A stretch of DNA of 64,000 bases from a virus. Its lineage: Duplodnaviria; Caudoviricetes. A program made the position numbers and the translations under genes. The notes under the pieces were generated by a model. That model did no database searches. It worked only from the letters and a program-made list of their open reading frames with translations, and was not told the origin of the DNA. The stretch covers positions 217-64,216 of IMG/VR virus record IMGVR_UViG_3300033407_000010, one strand, 5' to 3'. Shown piece after piece: positions 11,628 through 62,358 of this stretch; position 1 is the first letter of the stretch, and every line of letters begins with the position of its first letter.

Positions 11628-11786
11628 ATGCGGCACCCCCGGCAACCCCTCAAAAGCGGCCCTCCGGAGCCCAAGCCGGCGCCGCCCGCGCCTGTGGTTA
11701 ACGTCGCCAGGGCCATTGCCCGGATGATGGCCCGCGAGGATCATGACCGCGAGGCCGATAGTTTTACCCAAACCGACCCAAAATGA
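11628..11786 (+). CDS. 52-aa ORF coupled to the integrase (possible directionality or regulatory factor)
   Basis: MRHPRQPLKSGPPEPKPAPPAPVVNVARAIARMMAREDHDREADSFTQTDPK*; TGA overlaps integrase ATG; translated by hand. Confidence 0.5.
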   Translation: MRHPRQPLKSGPPEPKPAPPAPVVNVARAIARMMAREDHDREADSFTQTDPK

Positions 11787-13447
11787 CCCGCGCCGCGATC
11801 TACGCCCGCTTCTCCTCCGAGCTCCAAAGCGATCGCTCGATCGACGACCAGGTCGTGCTCTGCCGGGAGTACGCAGCCCGTCACGGCTGGACCGTGACCG
11901 AAGCCTACGCCGATTACGCCGTGTCCGGATCGTCGGTGCACGGTCGCTTCGCCTTCGAGCGCCTGGTGGCCGACGCTCGCGCGGGGCGCTTCGACATCAT
12001 CCTCGCCGAAGATCTCGATCGGCTCTCGCGCAACCAGGCCGACATTGCCGGACTCTATGAGCGCATGCAGTTCGCCGGCGTGAAGCTGTGGACCGTGGGC
12101 GACGGCGAAATCTCCGAGATGCACATCGGCCTCAAAGGCACGATGAGCGCGCTGTTTCTCAAAGCCCTCGTGTTGAAGATCCACCGCGGCATGGCCGGCC
12201 GCGTGCGCGCCGGCAAGAACCCCGGCGGCATCGCCTACGGTTACCGTGCCGTCAGGATGATCGACGACCGCGGTGAGCCGGTGCGCGGCGAGCGCTCGAT
12301 CGACGAGCAGGAGGCCGCCGTCGTCCGGCGCATCTTCGCCGACACGCTGTCGGGGAAGACACCGCGCGAGATCGCGGCCGCGCTCAACAGCGATGGCGTG
12401 CCGAGCCCGCGCGGCGGCCACTGGAACGCCTCGACGATCCACGGCTCGCGCAAGCGCGGTACCGGCATCCTGCGCCAGGAGCTCTACGCCGGCCGGATGG
12501 TCTGGAACCGCCAGCGGTTCGTGAAGAACCCCGACACCGGCCGCCGGGTCACGCGCACGAACACGGCCGCCCAGCATCAAGCCGCCGACGTGCCGCAGCT
12601 GCGGATCGTGGACGACGGCGATTGGCTCAAGGTGCAGGCGCTGTTGGTGGCGCGCGGCGGGCCGCATGCGTCTCATGCCCGCAAGTCGCCGCATATCTTT
12701 TCGGGCCTGATGCGGTGCGGCGTCTGCTGCGGCAAGTACGTTTCCGCCGGCGGCAGCAAGTACCCGCGGTTCATCTGCTCGCGGCGCAAGGAGAGCGGCA
12801 CCTGCACGAACACCAGGATCGTCTCGGCCAGGATCATCGAGGACCGCACGCTCGCCGCTCTCGAGCGCGACCTGCTCGACGAGCGGCTGGTTGCCGAGGT
12901 CGTGCGCGAATACACGATCGAGCGCCAGCGTCTCAAGTCGAGTCGGCGGCAGCACGAACGGCGGGCGGCGAATCGTCTAGGCGAGATCGACCGGGCGGTG
13001 CGCGGGCTTGTCGCTCTGGTGGAAGCCGGTGCGGATCCCGCCTCCGTCATGCCGCGTCTGCGCGAGCTCGAAGGCGAGCGCGCCGCCATCAAGGCGGAGC
13101 GGCCGCATCCCGGCCGCGAGGTCATCGAGCTTCATCCCGGCATCGGCGATCGCTACCGCGCAATCGTGCGCGACTTGCGCGCGTCGCTTGGCACCAGGAC
13201 CGCGGACCGCAAGATTGACGTCATCGCGTCGGTGCGCAGCCTGGTCGACCGGATCGTGGTCTACCCGCACGATGACCCGGCCGGACGCGACCTTGAGCTC
13301 GTGGGCCAGCTCGCGGGGCTTCTCGGTACGGCCGAGCAGGTGGTTTCTGGTATGATGGCCGTGGTAGCGGGGGAGGGATTTGGGCGCCCTCATACCAGCG
13401 GCCGGTTCCAGCCGGTGATCATCCCGTTCCGCTCGGTGGCCGCGTAG
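11783..13447 (+). CDS. Large serine recombinase (phage integrase)
   Basis: AAIYARFSSELQ catalytic motif, ILAEDLDRLSRN, YAGRMVWNR recombinase domain, Zn ribbon FSGLMRCGVC...FIC...C, coiled coil. Confidence 0.95.
   Translation: MTRAAIYARFSSELQSDRSIDDQVVLCREYAARHGWTVTEAYADYAVSGSSVHGRFAFERLVADARAGRFDIILAEDLDRLSRNQADIAGLYERMQFAGVKLWTVGDGEISEMHIGLKGTMSALFLKALVLKIHRGMAGRVRAGKNPGGIAYGYRAVRMIDDRGEPVRGERSIDEQEAAVVRRIFADTLSGKTPREIAAALNSDGVPSPRGGHWNASTIHGSRKRGTGILRQELYAGRMVWNRQRFVKNPDTGRRVTRTNTAAQHQAADVPQLRIVDDGDWLKVQALLVARGGPHASHARKSPHIFSGLMRCGVCCGKYVSAGGSKYPRFICSRRKESGTCTNTRIVSARIIEDRTLAALERDLLDERLVAEVVREYTIERQRLKSSRRQHERRAANRLGEIDRAVRGLVALVEAGADPASVMPRLRELEGERAAIKAERPHPGREVIELHPGIGDRYRAIVRDLRASLGTRTADRKIDVIASVRSLVDRIVVYPHDDPAGRDLELVGQLAGLLGTAEQVVSGMMAVVAGEGFGRPHTSGRFQPVIIPFRSVAA
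13362..13381 (-). other. Putative attP core identical in layout to a tRNA 3' end
   Basis: Reverse complement AAAT-CCCTC-CCCCGCT-A-CCA parses exactly as T-loop end, 5-nt T stem, 7-nt acceptor strand, discriminator, CCA; lies inside integrase codons VVAGEGF. Confidence 0.75.
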
Positions 13448-13452
13448 AACAC

Positions 13453-13492
13453 AAAAAAAAGCCCCGCCACCCGGCGAACCGGACAGCGGGGC
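13453..13492 (-). terminator. Intrinsic terminator (minus strand)
   Basis: Minus strand GCCCCGC-TGT-CCGG-TTCG-CCGG-GTG-GCGGGGC followed by T8. Confidence 0.8.
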
Positions 13493-13505
13493 ATGTAGCC
13501 ACGCG

Positions 13506-13700
13506 GTGGGGGGATGTGAAGTGATGACTTGGGCCAGGCGCATGACCAACGAAGAACTTCGATCGGAGGAGTACGACTTAAAACAGCATATTGATTCTGG
13601 CGAGCGCGACGGCATCGCAGCAAGCCGATGGGCGGTCGATAGGTTGGATAAGATCTCAACCGAGCAGCGTCGGAGGGTTAACCCACCTAAAGCGATGTAA
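13506..13700 (+). CDS. Hypothetical protein
   Basis: 64 aa ORF; true start probably internal (MT...). Confidence 0.4.
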   Translation: MGGCEVMTWARRMTNEELRSEEYDLKQHIDSGERDGIAASRWAVDRLDKISTEQRRRVNPPKAM

Positions 13701-13710
13701 CAATTCGTGA

Positions 13711-13761
13711 TTAGGCTACTGCCTAACAGGACTCGACTTAGGCAAAAGCCTAATATAGATT
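13711..13761 (+). promoter_or_regulatory. Sigma70-type promoter with two palindromic operators
   Basis: TTAGGC-tact-GCCTAA 13711-13726 and TTAGGC-aaaa-GCCTAA 13738-13753; -35 TCGACT 13733-13738, 17-bp spacer, -10 TAGATT 13756-13761. Confidence 0.75.
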
Positions 13762-13824
13762 ATTGACTGTCAGCAGGAGCTGACGCCCGGCGCCTCGTGG
13801 GTTTCAGGGGTGGAGACAGACCCG

Positions 13825-14178
13825 ATGACACGCTATATCGCATCGATCGACAACGACATGAACATCAACTCCAAAAACCCAACCGCATGGCGGGTCAGCG
13901 TTTTCCCAGAGACCCTGGACGCCCCGTGGACGCGTCCTGCTGGCCAGTGGTTTCAAATCGTCCCGGTGCATAACAACAGCCGGACAGACCGCGCCTGTTT
14001 CGAATCGCGCCGCGAGGCGCTGATCGCTATCCTCGATTTCATCGGCACTCCGTGCGTGATCCGCGACACGCAATTCGGCATGGAGGAATCTTTGATCGTG
14101 ACAGGGCACGGCGCTAAATCACCGGCGCGCGTCGTGGCCTCACGGTCGGCAAGCGGCACGTTTGTGCAGGATCGATAA
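13825..14178 (+). CDS. Orphan protein, first gene of the accessory operon (anti-defence candidate)
   Basis: 117 aa from ATG 13825 with GGAG RBS. Confidence 0.65.
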   Translation: MTRYIASIDNDMNINSKNPTAWRVSVFPETLDAPWTRPAGQWFQIVPVHNNSRTDRACFESRREALIAILDFIGTPCVIRDTQFGMEESLIVTGHGAKSPARVVASRSASGTFVQDR

Positions 14179-14189
14179 ATGATCCCAAC

Positions 14190-14276
14190 CCGTTCCCCGC
14201 ACACGCGGGGATGAACCGAGCACCGGACGCAGAGGCCGCAGAGGCCGCCGTTCCCCGCACACGCGGGGATGCTCGC
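14190..14276 (+). CRISPR. Cas-less type I-E CRISPR mini-array (full repeat, 29-nt spacer, 3'-degenerate repeat)
   Basis: CCGTTCCCCGCACACGCGGGGATGAACCG 14190-14218; spacer AGCACCGGACGCAGAGGCCGCAGAGGCCG 14219-14247; second copy identical for 24 nt from 14248; stem CCCCGC/GCGGGG and ATGAACCG handle typical of I-E. Confidence 0.9.
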
Positions 14277-14391
14277 TTGACGGCCCCGCCGTCCGCAAGT
14301 TCCGGGAGGCCACTGGCCTCCCCCTGAAGCGCCGCACTACAGAGCGAATGACGCTCGCAACGGGCAACCCCGCCCTTTGATGGAGAGACAG

Positions 14392-14685
14392 ATGACCGAT
14401 CTTGAAGCCCTGGTTTCGATATCTCAAACCGCGATGCGCGCCCGTGGTCAGTGGTGCGTGGATGGTATTGACGAAACCCTTCGGCGCGACATTCGCGCCA
14501 TGGTCGGGGATTGCGCCAAACTGCTGGGGCTTTCGATGGATTATTCGGAAACGCTTGAAGGCATGGCCGTGCGAGAACTTGAGCGACGCGCCACACCCGG
14601 CAGCATTGAGTGCCCCCATTGTCATTGGGGCTTTGCACCGGCTGTGGTCGATCAGCATATCCGCGAAAAGCACGGGGAGGGCTGA
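14392..14685 (+). CDS. Small orphan protein with C-terminal C2H2-like zinc finger
   Basis: CPHC...VDQHIREKH; GGAGAG RBS. Confidence 0.65.
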   Translation: MTDLEALVSISQTAMRARGQWCVDGIDETLRRDIRAMVGDCAKLLGLSMDYSETLEGMAVRELERRATPGSIECPHCHWGFAPAVVDQHIREKHGEG

Positions 14686-14688
14686 GCC

Positions 14689-14889
14689 ATGGAGCCCAAG
14701 ATTTTGAAGGATGGCAGGGAAACCTACGCCGTGATTGGCGCATCCGGCGCCCGCGCAGGATCCATCCAGCGGGTTGGCCCGAAGAATGGTGGAATGTGGG
14801 AGGTCCAGATGCTCGCCTCCCCGCGTGAAATGGTTCGATTTTTTAAGGATGCCAAGGCAGAAGCCATCGAACTGGCGCGGAGGTATTGA
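14689..14889 (+). CDS. Small orphan protein
   Basis: 66 aa; GGAGGG RBS. Confidence 0.65.
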   Translation: MEPKILKDGRETYAVIGASGARAGSIQRVGPKNGGMWEVQMLASPREMVRFFKDAKAEAIELARRY

Positions 14890-14933
14890 GCCATGCCGCC
14901 GGGTGCCGACGTTCTCCAATGGGAACACCTGCC

Positions 14934-15149
14934 ATGACCCCTCGCCAATTCGCCGCTATCAGAAAGCGCCTCGGCCTGTCGGCTTACGCGATGGGCAAGG
15001 CGCTTGGGTACGAGGGCAACCGCAACACGTTGCAGGTCGGAATCAGGAAATACGAATCAGGCGAACGGGAATTGCCGCCGTGGATCGCCCGGCTCGCTGA
15101 GATGTACGACGCGCACGGCGTACCGGGAAAATATCTGCCGGACGCGTGA
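14934..15149 (+). CDS. XRE-like HTH regulator (Aca-like position)
   Basis: MTPRQFAAIRKRLGLSAYAMGKALGY...IRKYESGERELP. Confidence 0.8.
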   Translation: MTPRQFAAIRKRLGLSAYAMGKALGYEGNRNTLQVGIRKYESGERELPPWIARLAEMYDAHGVPGKYLPDA

Positions 15150-15249
15150 TGCATTGCCCCCTAGATTGTGTTAGGGTGATTGAGATGAAACTTGCAGAGC
15201 AGTTGGAAGCCGCCAAGGCCGAAGTCGCTACTCACAGGCGGTGCGTGTG

Positions 15250-15480
15250 ATGCCCGGGCACTTTCCTTCGGGATCATCCCGCATTGACCGGCGGGACGCG
15301 CGAGTGAAGCGCGTTCACATTGTGAACGGCGGGAACACGACACTCTGCAATCGCCCGAAAACTGAGGGCGACATAGTGGTCACACTCTATAGCTCCGTCG
15401 GTGAGCGCGCGCAGCCATCCAACACTTGCAAGGTGTGCAGGAGGGTCTGGAAGGGCCACCACCGATCATCGTTCCAGTAG
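15250..15480 (+). CDS. Hypothetical Cys-containing protein
   Basis: TLCNRP...TCKVCRRVW; last + gene before convergent late operon. Confidence 0.4.
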   Translation: MPGHFPSGSSRIDRRDARVKRVHIVNGGNTTLCNRPKTEGDIVVTLYSSVGERAQPSNTCKVCRRVWKGHHRSSFQ

Positions 15481-15536
15481 CGCCCGGCACGCACTGACGC
15501 CCCGCCCGTAGTTCTAGCTGGCACGCTTCACCTTGA

Positions 15537-15758
15537 TCACGCAGGCTCGCCGTCCTTCGTACACTGAAACTTTGAATGAACTTCCATTTCCCATGCCCCC
15601 TTGACGGCACCGCGAATCCAATCCTGAGCGCGTGGCGTCATCTTCTCAGCGAACGCTTGGCACGCCGCCATAGTCTTGAACTTTGTCGCGTCTTGAATCT
15701 GTGCCGGCGCTGGGCCTTGCGGAGTCATCACGAGAAATAGCCAAACGAGGGTGAACAT
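15537..15758 (-). CDS. Small exported protein
   Basis: Hydrophobic N-terminus MFTLVWLFLVM; two Cys. Confidence 0.6.
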   Translation of the reverse strand: MFTLVWLFLVMTPQGPAPAQIQDATKFKTMAACQAFAEKMTPRAQDWIRGAVKGAWEMEVHSKFQCTKDGEPA

Positions 15759-23363: not shown

Positions 23364-25772
23364 CTAGTCCAACGTAAACTTGCCCAGGTAGCTGCCCCAA
23401 TTGATCGGATAGATATTGTCATCGTCCGATGCCATCGAAGGAATGCCGGCGTCCCAGGAATGGGAGCTGTAGATCGAAGGATTGGAAACATTCATGTGGT
23501 TGATCGCGCGATAGATCTGCGTCGAGAAGTTTGTCGAGAGCGGATTGAACGCGAACACGGCGCCATCATTCTGATCGGGGAATGCGAGCCAGTTCTTGTG
23601 CCGCACGGCAGGCCCCGGGGTTGGCGACCAGATTGTCGAGTGGTCGATCTCGCTCCATGCGCCGCCCTTCCTGATATCCAAGTACTCCGCAGATGAGAGT
23701 GATGTACTGGCACGAAGGAGCACGCCACCTCCGACACCATCGGGAGGATTAAAGTTGCTCTTGAAACCGAGGAACACGTAGCCGCAGAAGGCGCAGCCGA
23801 ATGCGTAGGATGCGTTCCATGTGTGCCCAGAGTCCGCATTCACATCCAAGTAGAGCAGTGCCCCCACATTAAAGCTGCTTGGGTCAACACGGATAACACC
23901 AAAGCCGGCGCCGGCACCGCCCGTGCCCTGCACCGCATAGTACACGTAGGTTTCGTCTGCCCAGCAGTCGCTTGTGTAGAGACTCTGACCGTATGTCGCC
24001 CTGATGCTGAGCGCCTCGACCGTCGAGAAGTCGGTCAGGTCGACGCGCAGGATCGCCGGACCGTCCGGGTCCGACGTGATCCAGATGTTCGGCAAGTAGA
24101 GGTAGCCATCGTGGACAACGGGTCTGTTGCCGTAGTCCGCCTCGATGCGCGCTTCCGGCACCGTCAATCCAAGAGCCGCCGCCAGGTCGAGCGTCCCCGC
24201 CGCGGTGAACGTGGACAGGTCTATCCGGCGGACCTCCTGGTAGGTGTAGACGTAGAGATACGTGTCATCGCTCGCCATCGCCGGAATAGGACCGGTTGCG
24301 CGCGTGCCGGTGAGGTCCAGTGACGCGATGGTCGAGAAATCCGCCAACGTCAGCCGTTGAATACGCGCCGTGCCGGTGCCGGCCGTGCCGCCTGCATAAG
24401 CGTAGGCGCCGTCCACATGCACCACAGACGCCGACCCGGACGACAGATCGATGTCGTCGTTGAACGTGATCGAGCGGCTCTCCTCAACCGGGATACACAG
24501 ACCCTCAATCGCGCAGGTCAAGAAGCCCTCCGTCTTGATTTCCGTCGTCCAGTCCGGCGACCGCACAACATCGACAACGGAGTGATGATACGTCCGCGCA
24601 TCGGTATCGATCTGGTGGACGTCCCCTGGCTCGATGCCGAGATAGGCAAGCTTGGCAATGTACTCCGCAGTTTCCTGAGCCTGCTTGCGCCAGTAGAATG
24701 CGAAATTGACTTCTTCGAGCATCTCGACGGCGGTCGACACCACCGGCGTGGCGATGCTGTCGGTCTCGAACGCCGCCGTGCCTGGAACCGGGTCGATATC
24801 CTCGCTCGCCACGACCGTGCTGGGCTCATTGTCCCTGTTGGCGTCGATGAAGCTGAGCCGCAGTTCCCGCAGTTCTTCCAGTTCGCTGGCCTGTGTCGCG
24901 ACAAACGGCTTGTCCCCGTTCTGGATGAACTTGGCGCGGTCGACGACCAGGTCCCGCGCGTAGACGCCCTTCTCGATGACGTAGAGCTTGCTTCCCGTCC
25001 TGATCGTCCAATGCGGCTTCGATTGCAGCCGGTCCTGCAGGAACTCGATGAAGTCCTGTTCGCGTCCAAGGATCAGTGCATCCATCCGGCCGGTAACGTC
25101 GATCGCCTCGAACACGTCGGCGCCGCGGCCGTCGTAGGCCGCCAGCGTCTCCAATGCTTCCTGCCAGGTGATGCCGTCGTCCGGATCCCCGAAATGACTA
25201 TCCTCCAGCATCACCGAGAAAAACGGAACCTCGCCGCCGAACTGATCGACCTGGATGTTGTGGAACGCCAGCGTCACCATCGGCGTATAGGCGAAAGCCT
25301 CATCGCCGTACGCCTCGATCGAAAGCGCGTCCGGCTGCTGCGACAACGTTCCGGTGTTCCAGCGGATTGCCTGGCCGTCATCTACCGTCGGCCCGTCGAA
25401 CGTAATCCCTGACAGGATCGCGCCGGTCGCGTCGTTCCATGCCTCCTTGCCGTTGATCCGGATCGCCGTGATCGAGCGCGTATCGTTTGCATAGTTGGCC
25501 GGGACAACGGCGCCGGCAATGCCCGAGACAGTCCATTCTTCGCCGATCTTCAGATGGATCGGACCCTCGATGATCCGCATCCCGATCAGCGACTTGCCGC
25601 CGATCCACAGCGGAATCTCCTTGTCGTAGAGCGTCGCTTCGTATTGTTCGGCCGACAGGCCTACGGCCTGCGGCTCCGACGTGGCGATCGTCGGCTCTTG
25701 GAAGGTAAAAGTTGTCTTCGTGCGCCTGCCACCAACTACGGCGCCGCCTGGGCCGACTACACCAGTTGCCAT
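23364..25772 (-). CDS. Tail tip / central fibre protein with C-terminal beta-propeller-like region
   Basis: IPLWIG, AYTPMVTLAF, LSFIDANRDNEP, YLGIEPGDV (tail-tip core); repeated RIDLSTF/RVDLTDF/RVDPSSF blades. Confidence 0.8.
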   Translation of the reverse strand: MATGVVGPGGAVVGGRRTKTTFTFQEPTIATSEPQAVGLSAEQYEATLYDKEIPLWIGGKSLIGMRIIEGPIHLKIGEEWTVSGIAGAVVPANYANDTRSITAIRINGKEAWNDATGAILSGITFDGPTVDDGQAIRWNTGTLSQQPDALSIEAYGDEAFAYTPMVTLAFHNIQVDQFGGEVPFFSVMLEDSHFGDPDDGITWQEALETLAAYDGRGADVFEAIDVTGRMDALILGREQDFIEFLQDRLQSKPHWTIRTGSKLYVIEKGVYARDLVVDRAKFIQNGDKPFVATQASELEELRELRLSFIDANRDNEPSTVVASEDIDPVPGTAAFETDSIATPVVSTAVEMLEEVNFAFYWRKQAQETAEYIAKLAYLGIEPGDVHQIDTDARTYHHSVVDVVRSPDWTTEIKTEGFLTCAIEGLCIPVEESRSITFNDDIDLSSGSASVVHVDGAYAYAGGTAGTGTARIQRLTLADFSTIASLDLTGTRATGPIPAMASDDTYLYVYTYQEVRRIDLSTFTAAGTLDLAAALGLTVPEARIEADYGNRPVVHDGYLYLPNIWITSDPDGPAILRVDLTDFSTVEALSIRATYGQSLYTSDCWADETYVYYAVQGTGGAGAGFGVIRVDPSSFNVGALLYLDVNADSGHTWNASYAFGCAFCGYVFLGFKSNFNPPDGVGGGVLLRASTSLSSAEYLDIRKGGAWSEIDHSTIWSPTPGPAVRHKNWLAFPDQNDGAVFAFNPLSTNFSTQIYRAINHMNVSNPSIYSSHSWDAGIPSMASDDDNIYPINWGSYLGKFTLD

Positions 25773-61306: not shown

Positions 61307-61546
61307 TCATGCGATGGCCCTCGCTGATTTGTGCTCAGGCCAGTGCTGGTCGAGCCACGCGCGCAGGCGCTCGTAGCTGTCGATGGTGAAGTTTGCATCG
61401 CGCTCGACGCGGCCCAGGAACGAGACGTCGTTGAGCGCGGACTTGCAGACGTTCGACCGGTTGTCGCCGGCCAGGGCGCAGTAGGCGTCGACGCGCGCCA
61501 GCAGCCCATCTCTCAGCTGCATTTTCGTGGGGAGGATGCCGCTCAT
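61307..61546 (-). CDS. Cro-like repressor
   Basis: LLARVDAYC...VCKSALNDVSFLGRVE...FTIDSYERLRAWLDQHWP; divergent from CI. Confidence 0.8.
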   Translation of the reverse strand: MSGILPTKMQLRDGLLARVDAYCALAGDNRSNVCKSALNDVSFLGRVERDANFTIDSYERLRAWLDQHWPEHKSARAIA

Positions 61547-61554
61547 GAAACGCG

Positions 61555-61600
61555 ACGCTAATTTGATATATCATATTTGTCAATTTGATCGAAATTGACC
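61555..61600 (-). promoter_or_regulatory. Lytic (pR-like) promoter with operator in its spacer; back-to-back -35 for cI
   Basis: Minus -35 TTGACA 61583-61578, -10 TAGCGT 61560-61555; operator ATTTGA-tata-TCATAT 61561-61576; plus TTGACC 61595-61600. Confidence 0.75.
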
Positions 61601-61638
61601 AATAGATCGGCGCGTCAAATCAGTGGCTTGGACCGTTG

Positions 61639-62358
61639 ATGCCCACCACCGAAAGCTTCGACCGCCGGCAGCTGGTTGCCCGAATCCGTCAACGCATGAC
61701 CGAACTTGGCACCAACGCCAAGGCGGTTTCGCGCGCGGCGAAGATCGGCGAGACCGGCGTTCACGACATCTTGAGCGGGCACAACAAGAACCCCTCCGTT
61801 CCGCAACTGGCTTCCATTGCCAGCGCTCTTGGGTGTACCGTGAGTTACCTGATCGGGGAGGACAACCAAGCGGAACCACCAACAAGCAAGGGGGTCGCGC
61901 CGATTCCGGTGGTCGGCATAGCGGAAGCTGGCGCGTTTCGGAAAATGGCACAAAGCGTTGACGCTGAACACGAACTGCCAACGATTGCTGCTCCGCGCAG
62001 CGACCTTTTCCCCAACGCCAAGCACTTCGCCTTCGAGGTCCGCGGCGATTCCATGAACGCCGCGAAGCCGACGCCGATCGTCGATGGGATGCACGTCCTG
62101 TGCGTCGACGTGGTTGACGCCGGACTAACGATCGAGAGCGGCAGAATCTACCTCGTCCGCCAGACGCGGGACGCCGGCCAGACCTACGAGACGACGGTCA
62201 AGCGCGCCCGGGTGTTCAAGGACCGCGTCGAGCTGCACCCCGAAAGCACGAACCAGCAGCACGCCCCGATGGTGATTCGCCCCGGGGAGAGCGACACAAA
62301 TGCCCACCGGATCGAGGCGATCGGCTGGGTCTACGGGGTGTATGCTTCTCTCGAATAG
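61639..62358 (+). CDS. CI-like repressor (HTH plus S24 peptidase)
   Basis: N-terminal HTH; FEVRGDSM (catalytic Ser), TTVKR (catalytic Lys). Confidence 0.92.
   Translation: MPTTESFDRRQLVARIRQRMTELGTNAKAVSRAAKIGETGVHDILSGHNKNPSVPQLASIASALGCTVSYLIGEDNQAEPPTSKGVAPIPVVGIAEAGAFRKMAQSVDAEHELPTIAAPRSDLFPNAKHFAFEVRGDSMNAAKPTPIVDGMHVLCVDVVDAGLTIESGRIYLVRQTRDAGQTYETTVKRARVFKDRVELHPESTNQQHAPMVIRPGESDTNAHRIEAIGWVYGVYASLE

Follow-up and report, generated by a model that had tools for sequence, protein, structure and literature searches.

Twin TTAGGC palindromes on the promoter of a phage mini-array operon, candidate operators of a 71-aa HTH protein

What are two identical palindromes doing on the promoter of a small phage operon that carries a CRISPR mini-array, and which protein would bind them? 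The initial annotation of this locus proposed that the HTH protein encoded at the end of the operon binds them and represses the operon after an early burst, in the manner of the Aca repressors of anti-CRISPR (acr) operons. Our analysis of the window, i.e. the whole stretch of 64,000 bases from a near-complete (96%) viral record, and of contigs encoding homologues of this HTH protein suggests that the dyads are rather likely to be operators of a 71-aa HTH autorepressor, which would be a candidate for a new Aca-like family in comparison with the solved Aca proteins.

The operon runs on the + strand in the order ORF117, type I-E mini-array, ORF97, ORF66 and 71-aa XRE-type HTH. Its features and those of its promoter region are as follows.

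13697..13712, + strand: conserved upstream element GTAACAATTCGTGATT, near-identical in L009, L010, L011, L184 and L190
13711..13726, no strand assigned: putative distal operator dyad TTAGGC-TACT-GCCTAA, by direct reading and pattern search
13728..13733, + strand: probable -35 AGGACT, by homology, 17 bp upstream of TAATAT; a weak match (alternative: TCGACT, 13733-13738)
13738..13753, no strand assigned: putative proximal operator dyad TTAGGC-AAAA-GCCTAA, by direct reading and pattern search
13751..13756, + strand: probable -10 TAATAT, by homology (alternative: TAGATT, 13756-13761)
13769..13784, + strand: promoter-proximal 5'-UTR hairpin GTCAGC-AGGA-GCTGAC (6-4-6), from sequence and centroid fold
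13825..14178, + strand: ORF117, first cargo gene, an orphan without family match
14190..14276, + strand: type I-E mini-array (29-nt repeat 14190-14218, 29-nt spacer 14219-14247, repeat 14248-14276)
14342..14356, + strand: ancestral-type 5'-UTR hairpin GAGCG-AATGA-CGCTC, from covariation over 8 loci
14392..14685, + strand: ORF97, cargo, with a C-terminal CxxC...H..H zinc-finger-like motif; weak leads only
14689..14889, + strand: ORF66, cargo, an orphan without family match
14934..15149, + strand: 71-aa XRE-type HTH, proposed autorepressor, from HTH_31, phrog_14076 and a structural model

The twin palindromes and the probable promoter

The palindromes are real and look functional. Direct reading and a pattern search bore out the two perfect 6-4-6 inverted repeats described at the outset: each is 16 bp long, their starts are 27 bp apart, all four half-sites read TTAGGC, and the 64,000 bases hold these two perfect copies only. 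On a rough estimate, the chance of two identical perfect 6-4-6 palindromes in one intergenic region of ~120 bp is ~1e-7. They take up the narrow stretch separating the end of a small ORF (13700) from the + strand gene block, the proximal dyad lying 86 bp and the distal dyad 113 bp from the ORF117 ATG. The next-best match, at 25287, has 2 mismatches and lies inside an 802-aa ORF; it was discarded as a further operator, being coding sequence. The motif is also distinct from the CI-type operator, as had been claimed, the phage's only other clear HTH gene being that of a CI-like repressor (61636-62358) with different, AT-rich dyads beside it. The CI-like protein consists of an HTH and a C-terminal domain, and the gap that separates its gene from a divergent 79-aa gene (61546-61636) holds dyads such as GTCAATTTGATCGAAATTGAC, which are probably the immunity operators.

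A generic sigma-70 consensus scan called no promoter within 13300-15700. The hexamers named in the initial annotation, TCGACT (13733-38) and TAGATT (13756-61), do exist with a 17-bp spacer, but they are probably 5 bp off, since the promoters of the homologous loci L190, L011 and L010 align in a way that places the core promoter at AGGACT-17-TAATAT. The corresponding elements read TTGACG-17-TAATAT in L190 and TAGACA-17-TAATAT in L011, and CTAATAT is kept right at the dyad's right arm in L009, L010, L011 and L190. The described placement of the dyads stands in both registers, the proximal one filling the -35/-10 spacer and reaching the -10, and the distal one lying just upstream of the -35, which it abuts; in the AGGACT-17-TAATAT register, the -10 is overlapped by the right arm of the proximal dyad. 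We infer that transcription starts near 13762-13766.

The 16-nt element at 13697..13712 shares bases with the upstream ORF's stop codon and with the distal dyad's left arm. Across loci this element (GTAACAWTTCGTGATT) is better conserved than the dyads and always stands at the cassette's left edge (L009:1269-1284, L010:2482-2497, L011:2987-3002, L184:159-174, L190:~126-141); it could be an UP-like element, the site of another factor or the boundary of a mobile cassette. A search of the metagenome collection with a pattern that combines the element, as TTCGTGATT, with the proximal dyad gave zero matches, known positives (e.g. L011) evidently being absent from that collection. Further upstream, a large serine integrase gene occupies 11783-13447, and a strong hairpin with a T run, read on the - strand, lies just past its stop codon (13461-13492), where it would halt leftward (antisense) transcription before the integrase gene. 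The small ORF at 13506-13700 weakly resembles the C-terminal part of L184's 116-aa cargo protein (L184:247-597), with 33% over 48 aa and E = 0.003 when compared in a small database.

Dyads and leader hairpins in cassettes of HTH homologues

To test the operator idea by comparison, we examined the promoter of the operon ending in the HTH on contigs encoding homologues. L009 (HTH 86% identical) has twin TTAGCC-N4-GGCTAA dyads, again 27 bp apart, before a 105-aa cargo gene. L184 (71%) has cTAGCC-ACCC-GGCTAa and a cargo of 116 aa, while L011 (68%) and L010 (66%) each have one TTAGCC-N4-GGCTAA followed by TAT, with cargo of 109 and 74 aa, respectively. In L016 (62%), TTGACA is followed by GTAGCC-ATGT-GGCTAC in the spacer. 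L190 has a canonical promoter, TTGACG and TAATAT, whose 17-bp spacer contains TTAGCC-TATG-GGCTAA (cargo 74 + 67 aa), and L188/L189 has TTGACT and then TTAGCC-AAGT-GGCTAA (cargo 157 aa). The claim that the palindromes lie on the promoter of the mini-array operon is upheld; at the corresponding promoter position, homologous HTH cassettes have dyads of this type.

In 111 kb of HTH-homologue loci we counted eight copies of the core TAGSC-N4-GSCTA (window, L009, L010, L011, L016 and L184), compared to a mean of 0.19 and a maximum of 2 after shuffling; each precedes the first gene of an operon ending in the HTH, at a distance of 63-113 bp. L190 and L188/L189 are two further cassettes with the same pattern, bringing the total to eight independent cassettes. 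Two dyads are found in 2/8 of these TAGSC cassettes; L010, L011, L016, L184, L190 and L188 have the proximal dyad only, the distal one being absent in L010, L011 and L190. All four half-sites read TTAGGC in the window and all four read TTAGCC in L009, a concerted symmetric change that is not easily accounted for unless a symmetric binder exerts selection.

More distant homologues have perfect dyads that differ in sequence and occupy the same promoter position: GTTGCGAT-T-ATCGCAAC after CTTGAC-N17 in L012/L015, CGGGCA-N4-TGCCCG in L191/L192, where it precedes each of two consecutive small genes, GTATGC-N4-GCATAC in L194/L195, where it stands between TTGACG and the -10 and a large serine recombinase is adjacent, and TGGCAT-AT-ATGCCA at the core promoter in L193. 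No such dyad was found at the promoters of L004 and L013. A simple code relating recognition helix to half-site was ruled out, as L016 and L012/L015 have the identical recognition helix DNTVSV and different dyads. In L191 the dyad, CGGGCA-ATNA-TGCCCG, occurs at 1736-1751 and 2085-2100, each copy preceding a small gene, and a single HTH may there govern both neighbouring units, a possibility lately put forward for several Aca proteins.

The family cassettes have one to six cargo genes, with products of 74-237 aa, and the proteins are unrelated from one cassette to another, save for one membrane protein common to L012, L015 and L013. Integrases flanking the cassettes are of both the serine and the tyrosine type. 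With cargo and integrase both changing, the HTH and the dyad evidently travel together, and the combination of a terminal HTH, a core-promoter dyad that drifts with it and swapped cargo looks like an autoregulator and its operator.

Downstream of the family promoters lies a second conserved element, a GAGCG-AWTGA-CGCTC hairpin with a 5-bp stem, which at the other loci ends ~12-25 nt before the cargo start. Across eight sequences every cell of the alignment pairs, with compensatory changes in 2/5 base pairs (GAGCC/GGCTC in L011; GAGGC/GCTTC in L016); the covariation score was reached by 1/500 shuffles in this small sample. These changes point to an RNA structure. In the window, this hairpin (14342-14356) does not stand beside the promoter but after the mini-array, directly before ORF97 and with the homologous RBS region. 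Since the family hairpin and RBS follow the array, the simplest reading is that ORF117 and the array (~570 bp; 13762-14330) came in as an insertion separating an ancestral promoter from its leader, which would bring the array under the control of the dyads. The hairpin that now lies next to the window promoter (13769-13784) is not conserved in the other loci and its fold z-score is not significant.

Which protein binds the dyads

The 71-aa HTH was the only DNA-binding protein detected in the operon. It scores 24.2 bits against HTH_31, just below the Pfam cut-off of 27, and matches the transcriptional regulator family phrog_14076 at 8e-10. Its AlphaFold model, built with nine homologues, has four helices (pLDDT 95) in a generic XRE-type fold that places it in the XRE/Cro-C1-type superfamily. 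The best fold matches are MqsA and HigA2; these two, Aca10, C.Csp231I and Aca2 align with TM 0.63-0.72 (0.66-0.72 for MqsA, HigA2, Aca2 and C proteins) and Foldseek E > 0.03. Single-sequence and profile searches of all PDB chains gave no sequence match to the solved Aca proteins (Aca1, Aca2, Aca10); the sole match was BldD (E = 0.045 single-sequence, 6e-4 profile). An exhaustive profile search returned 937 cluster representatives at E <= 1e-3, of which 241 reach E <= 1e-10, mostly stand-alone proteins of 65-100 aa from, where organisms are named, Methyloceanibacter, Burkholderiaceae and Hyphomicrobium. Family members bear at most the names 'XRE-family regulator' or 'YiaG', and none named as Aca was found in public sources.

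Taken with the homologous cassettes, in which the dyad changes as the HTH diverges, these observations make the protein at 14934..15149, as originally proposed, the best candidate binder of the dyads. The motif alone does not identify the binder. A strict scan of the collections for twin TTAGGC dyads found one viral locus, L003, and a relaxed TTAGSS scan gave >120 metagenome and 14 viral matches, mostly telomere-like TTAGGG/CCCTAA repeats. None of the 32 filtered twin-dyad loci from the collection scans had a family HTH within 1.5 kb; the half-site is therefore not diagnostic by itself, and the use of the twin-dyad pattern as a reciprocal test for the HTH family was dropped. In L003 (2227-2275), the exact twin TTAGGC-N4-GCCTAA dyads are 33 bp apart and frame a leftward GTTGAC -35, before an operon of four small genes (68, 78, 86 and 93 aa), with a divergent 75-aa HTH and a tyrosine integrase on the right. 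This HTH is only 26% identical to that of the window, a doubtful and at best remote relative, and the locus looks like a second, divergently arranged Aca-like module.

Three other explanations of the dyads and their HTH are each unlikely in our judgement. The first is a switch of the kind made by restriction-modification (R-M) controller proteins, with the HTH activating a weak promoter from the distal site at low level and repressing it from the proximal site at higher level. The weak window -35 (AGGACT), abutted by the distal dyad, would suit such a switch, as would the 27-bp spacing kept in L009 and the presence among the closest folds of C.Csp231I, a controller protein with twin operators. 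We give it little credence, however, as no R-M genes adjoin the operon and the six cassettes with a proximal dyad only indicate that the distal site is dispensable.

Secondly, the module could be a type II toxin-antitoxin or addiction system, in which the HTH is a HigA/MqsA-like antitoxin, the small ORF upstream of it the toxin, and there is no anti-CRISPR role. Besides the best fold matches, a weak match to TIGR03830 points this way, and in L009 a small ORF is followed by the HTH with overlapping stop and start, an arrangement resembling higBA. The TIGR03830 (MqsA) score of 17.8 bits is nevertheless far under the cut-off of 61.8, which leaves the HTH outside the MqsA/HigA-type antitoxins. Family searches with the window cargo proteins found no known anti-CRISPR, toxin or defence family; three ORFs and a mini-array precede the HTH in the window, and cargo size and number vary widely among cassettes, all of which makes an addiction module improbable for the window, though for the HTH family as a whole such a role is conceivable.

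Thirdly, the dyads could belong to another binder, either a host regulator, for example of the ArsR/SmtB type, or a phage factor, while the HTH acts elsewhere, e.g. on the DNA or RNA form of the conserved GAGCG-N5-CGCTC element. That UTR element is indeed more conserved than the dyads across the HTH family, and genes of ArsR-type regulators in metagenomes carry twin TTAGCS-N4-SGCTAA dyads around the -35. We nonetheless think it a poor prospect: no ArsR-like protein was found encoded in the phage, the ArsR sites have a spacing of 33-34 bp, compared with 27 in the window, and a half-site other than TTAGGC, and the dyad tracks the HTH family across genomes and integrase types. As for the UTR element, its pairing in L011 is kept by compensatory changes while the HTH helix is unchanged, which fits an RNA structure better. 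The ArsR/SmtB-type regulators in question (~100 aa, with the conserved DAYEAVFTALAHPxRRRIL) come from soil metagenomes, and their twin dyads lie upstream around a TTGAC -35 (L133:1482-1531, L169:539-587, L157:5120-5168 and ~8 more metagenome loci), where they are probably the autoregulatory operator. They resemble the window in their near-identical half-site and in the placement of their dyads, the first upstream of the -35 and the second within the spacer, and differ from it in their unrelated winged HTH fold, their spacing and their bacterial rather than phage context.

Serine-integrase attP sites are roughly 50-bp imperfect dyads, and the two palindromes, lying ~260 bp beyond the end of the serine integrase gene, jointly make up a larger imperfect inverted repeat, the 45-bp dyad-symmetric region 13710-13754, but it is highly improbable that this region is the attP or recombination site of that integrase, as each half is itself a perfect 6-4-6 palindrome fitting two dimer sites, the dyads align with -35/-10 elements, and the same dyads, often single, occur beside a tyrosine integrase in L009 and kilobases away from any integrase in L010 and L011.

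With the HTH as autorepressor, a dimer of the 71-aa protein would bind each palindrome. On the proximal site, in the spacer and overlapping the -10, it would block RNA polymerase at what is a sigma-70-type promoter, and a second dimer on the distal site, 27 bp upstream and abutting the -35, would probably make repression tighter or cooperative. The operon would be transcribed on entry and subsequently turned off by its own product, the repressor being encoded on the transcript that it controls. What we observe are the sites, where they lie, how they are conserved and how they vary together with the HTH family; binding, repression and timing we infer. The cassette as a whole (promoter dyad, 5'-UTR hairpin, variable small cargo and terminal HTH) would be a mobile accessory module, which in the window phage would have taken up ORF117 and the type I-E CRISPR mini-array.

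The mini-array and likeness to Aca operons

In published Aca operons, the inverted repeats number one or two, of which one is always in the core promoter, with the first ATG within ~150 bp and mostly within 120 bp (PMC9410906). The window matches this published design, with a small HTH last in a co-oriented operon and inverted repeats in the core promoter <150 bp from the ATG. Like the Aca1-controlled acr operons (Pseudomonas phage JBD30 type), it combines an end-of-operon small HTH, a core-promoter repeat and variable cargo. A second upstream repeat is found in a minority of both groups, ~40% of Aca1 operons (PMC13551039) and 2/8 of the TAGSC cassettes, and both groups have a short covarying hairpin just after the transcription start, ending ~20 nt before the first ATG (PMC13551039, PMC9410906); Aca1 and Aca2 also bind this post-TSS hairpin as RNA (PMC13551039). 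In contrast to Aca1, the window HTH has no detectable sequence relationship, its operator sequence is another one, its cargo proteins are not known Acrs, and the hosts appear to be Alphaproteobacteria (Hyphomicrobium, Methyloceanibacter). With Aca2 (Pectobacterium phage ZF40) and Aca10 it shares the XRE-type fold (TM 0.63-0.71) and would share the principle of autorepression through a promoter repeat; the Foldseek E > 0.03 is, however, no better than that for antitoxins and C proteins, and the window HTH lacks the C-terminal dimerisation domain of Aca2 (71 aa vs ~120).

ORF117 is a singleton among 5.8 billion proteins, no usable lead on cargo function came from Pfam, PHROGs, NCBIfam, PADLOC or the ESM Atlas, an isolated-phage database gave no match for the HTH or ORF117, and Rfam had no family in the window. 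The original acr/Aca reading is best restated by analogy: the cassette may work like an Aca system built on a different protein family, one that falls outside the named families when compared with solved Aca1, Aca2 and Aca10, has a generic XRE fold and would control orphan cargo.

The mini-array, the operon's sole link to CRISPR, is what makes an anti-CRISPR (Aca-like) role plausible and probably the likeliest meaning of the cassette in this phage. This role is argued from the presence of the array in the cassette, which is seen in the window alone, and from analogy with acr-racr and acrIF24-cracr. The second repeat keeps an intact hairpin and has a degenerate 3' handle, and these two repeats are the only ones in the viral record. 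With <=1 mismatch, the repeat forms arrays of 61-bp period in 14/401 genomes sampled from the order of Hyphomicrobium, and is exact in several; the unit is thus a cas-less viral one matching bacterial CRISPR array repeats, as in Racr and Cracr elements. The spacer, at 29 nt, compares with the 32 nt implied by the hosts' 61-bp period, and contains a direct 9-nt tandem duplication (CGCAGAGGC twice). It had no exact match in viral contigs, no convincing partial match in the phage itself and, in ~63 kb around the arrays and cas genes of four exact-repeat genomes, no match of at least 21/29 bases (best 20). Twenty other viral contigs carry the repeat, many as a single unit, none with the HTH or the dyads, and no CRISPR repeat was found in the other HTH-family cassettes.

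In acr-racr and acrIF24-cracr (PMC10651486, bioRxiv 10.1101/2024.10.29.618823), as in the window, a cas-less phage repeat or mini-array is co-transcribed with small proteins. AcrIF24 itself supplies the HTH autoregulator of the acrIF24-cracr cassette, whereas the regulator in the window is a separate gene of an undescribed family. In type I-E Cracr arrays, as in the window array, the spacer is shortened and the terminal repeat degenerate, but the 29-nt spacer of the window is longer than the 21-24 nt of the tested I-E Cracrs, and no cas-promoter target was found for it in the four exact-repeat genomes.

If the HTH were confirmed as the autorepressor of anti-defence cargo, it would found a new Aca-like family, whose ~240 representative clusters come mostly from uncultured Alphaproteobacteria and from phages of these bacteria, and whose operator and UTR hairpin are easily recognised. 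It is chiefly through such families, by guilt by association, that new anti-CRISPR and other anti-defence genes are found, and the orphan cargo (ORF117, ORF97 and ORF66 in the window, and that of L009, L010, L011, L184 and L190) would supply candidates in a clade with none known. The window would also offer a natural case of an RNA-type anti-CRISPR element that came under Aca-type control when it was inserted into a pre-existing cassette. The self-shut-off design is already known from Aca-type systems; what would be new is the regulator family, undescribed in comparison with the solved Acas, and the mini-array as controlled cargo.

A more speculative extension, to which we attach a low probability, makes the HTH a dual DNA- and RNA-binding regulator, on the model of Aca1 and Aca2, in a CRISPR-sensing anti-CRISPR circuit. 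The host's Cas6e would cut at the two repeats and release ORF117, leaving a second mRNA with the ancestral GAGCG-AATGA-CGCTC hairpin in its leader, and expression of ORF97, ORF66 and the repressor would thereby depend on whether a type I-E system is active in the infected cell.

A lone exact type I-E repeat also occurs at L050:6582-6608 (G086 contig 25), on a 26-kb contig of a bacterial genome with full arrays elsewhere, and may be another prophage-borne solitary repeat unit.
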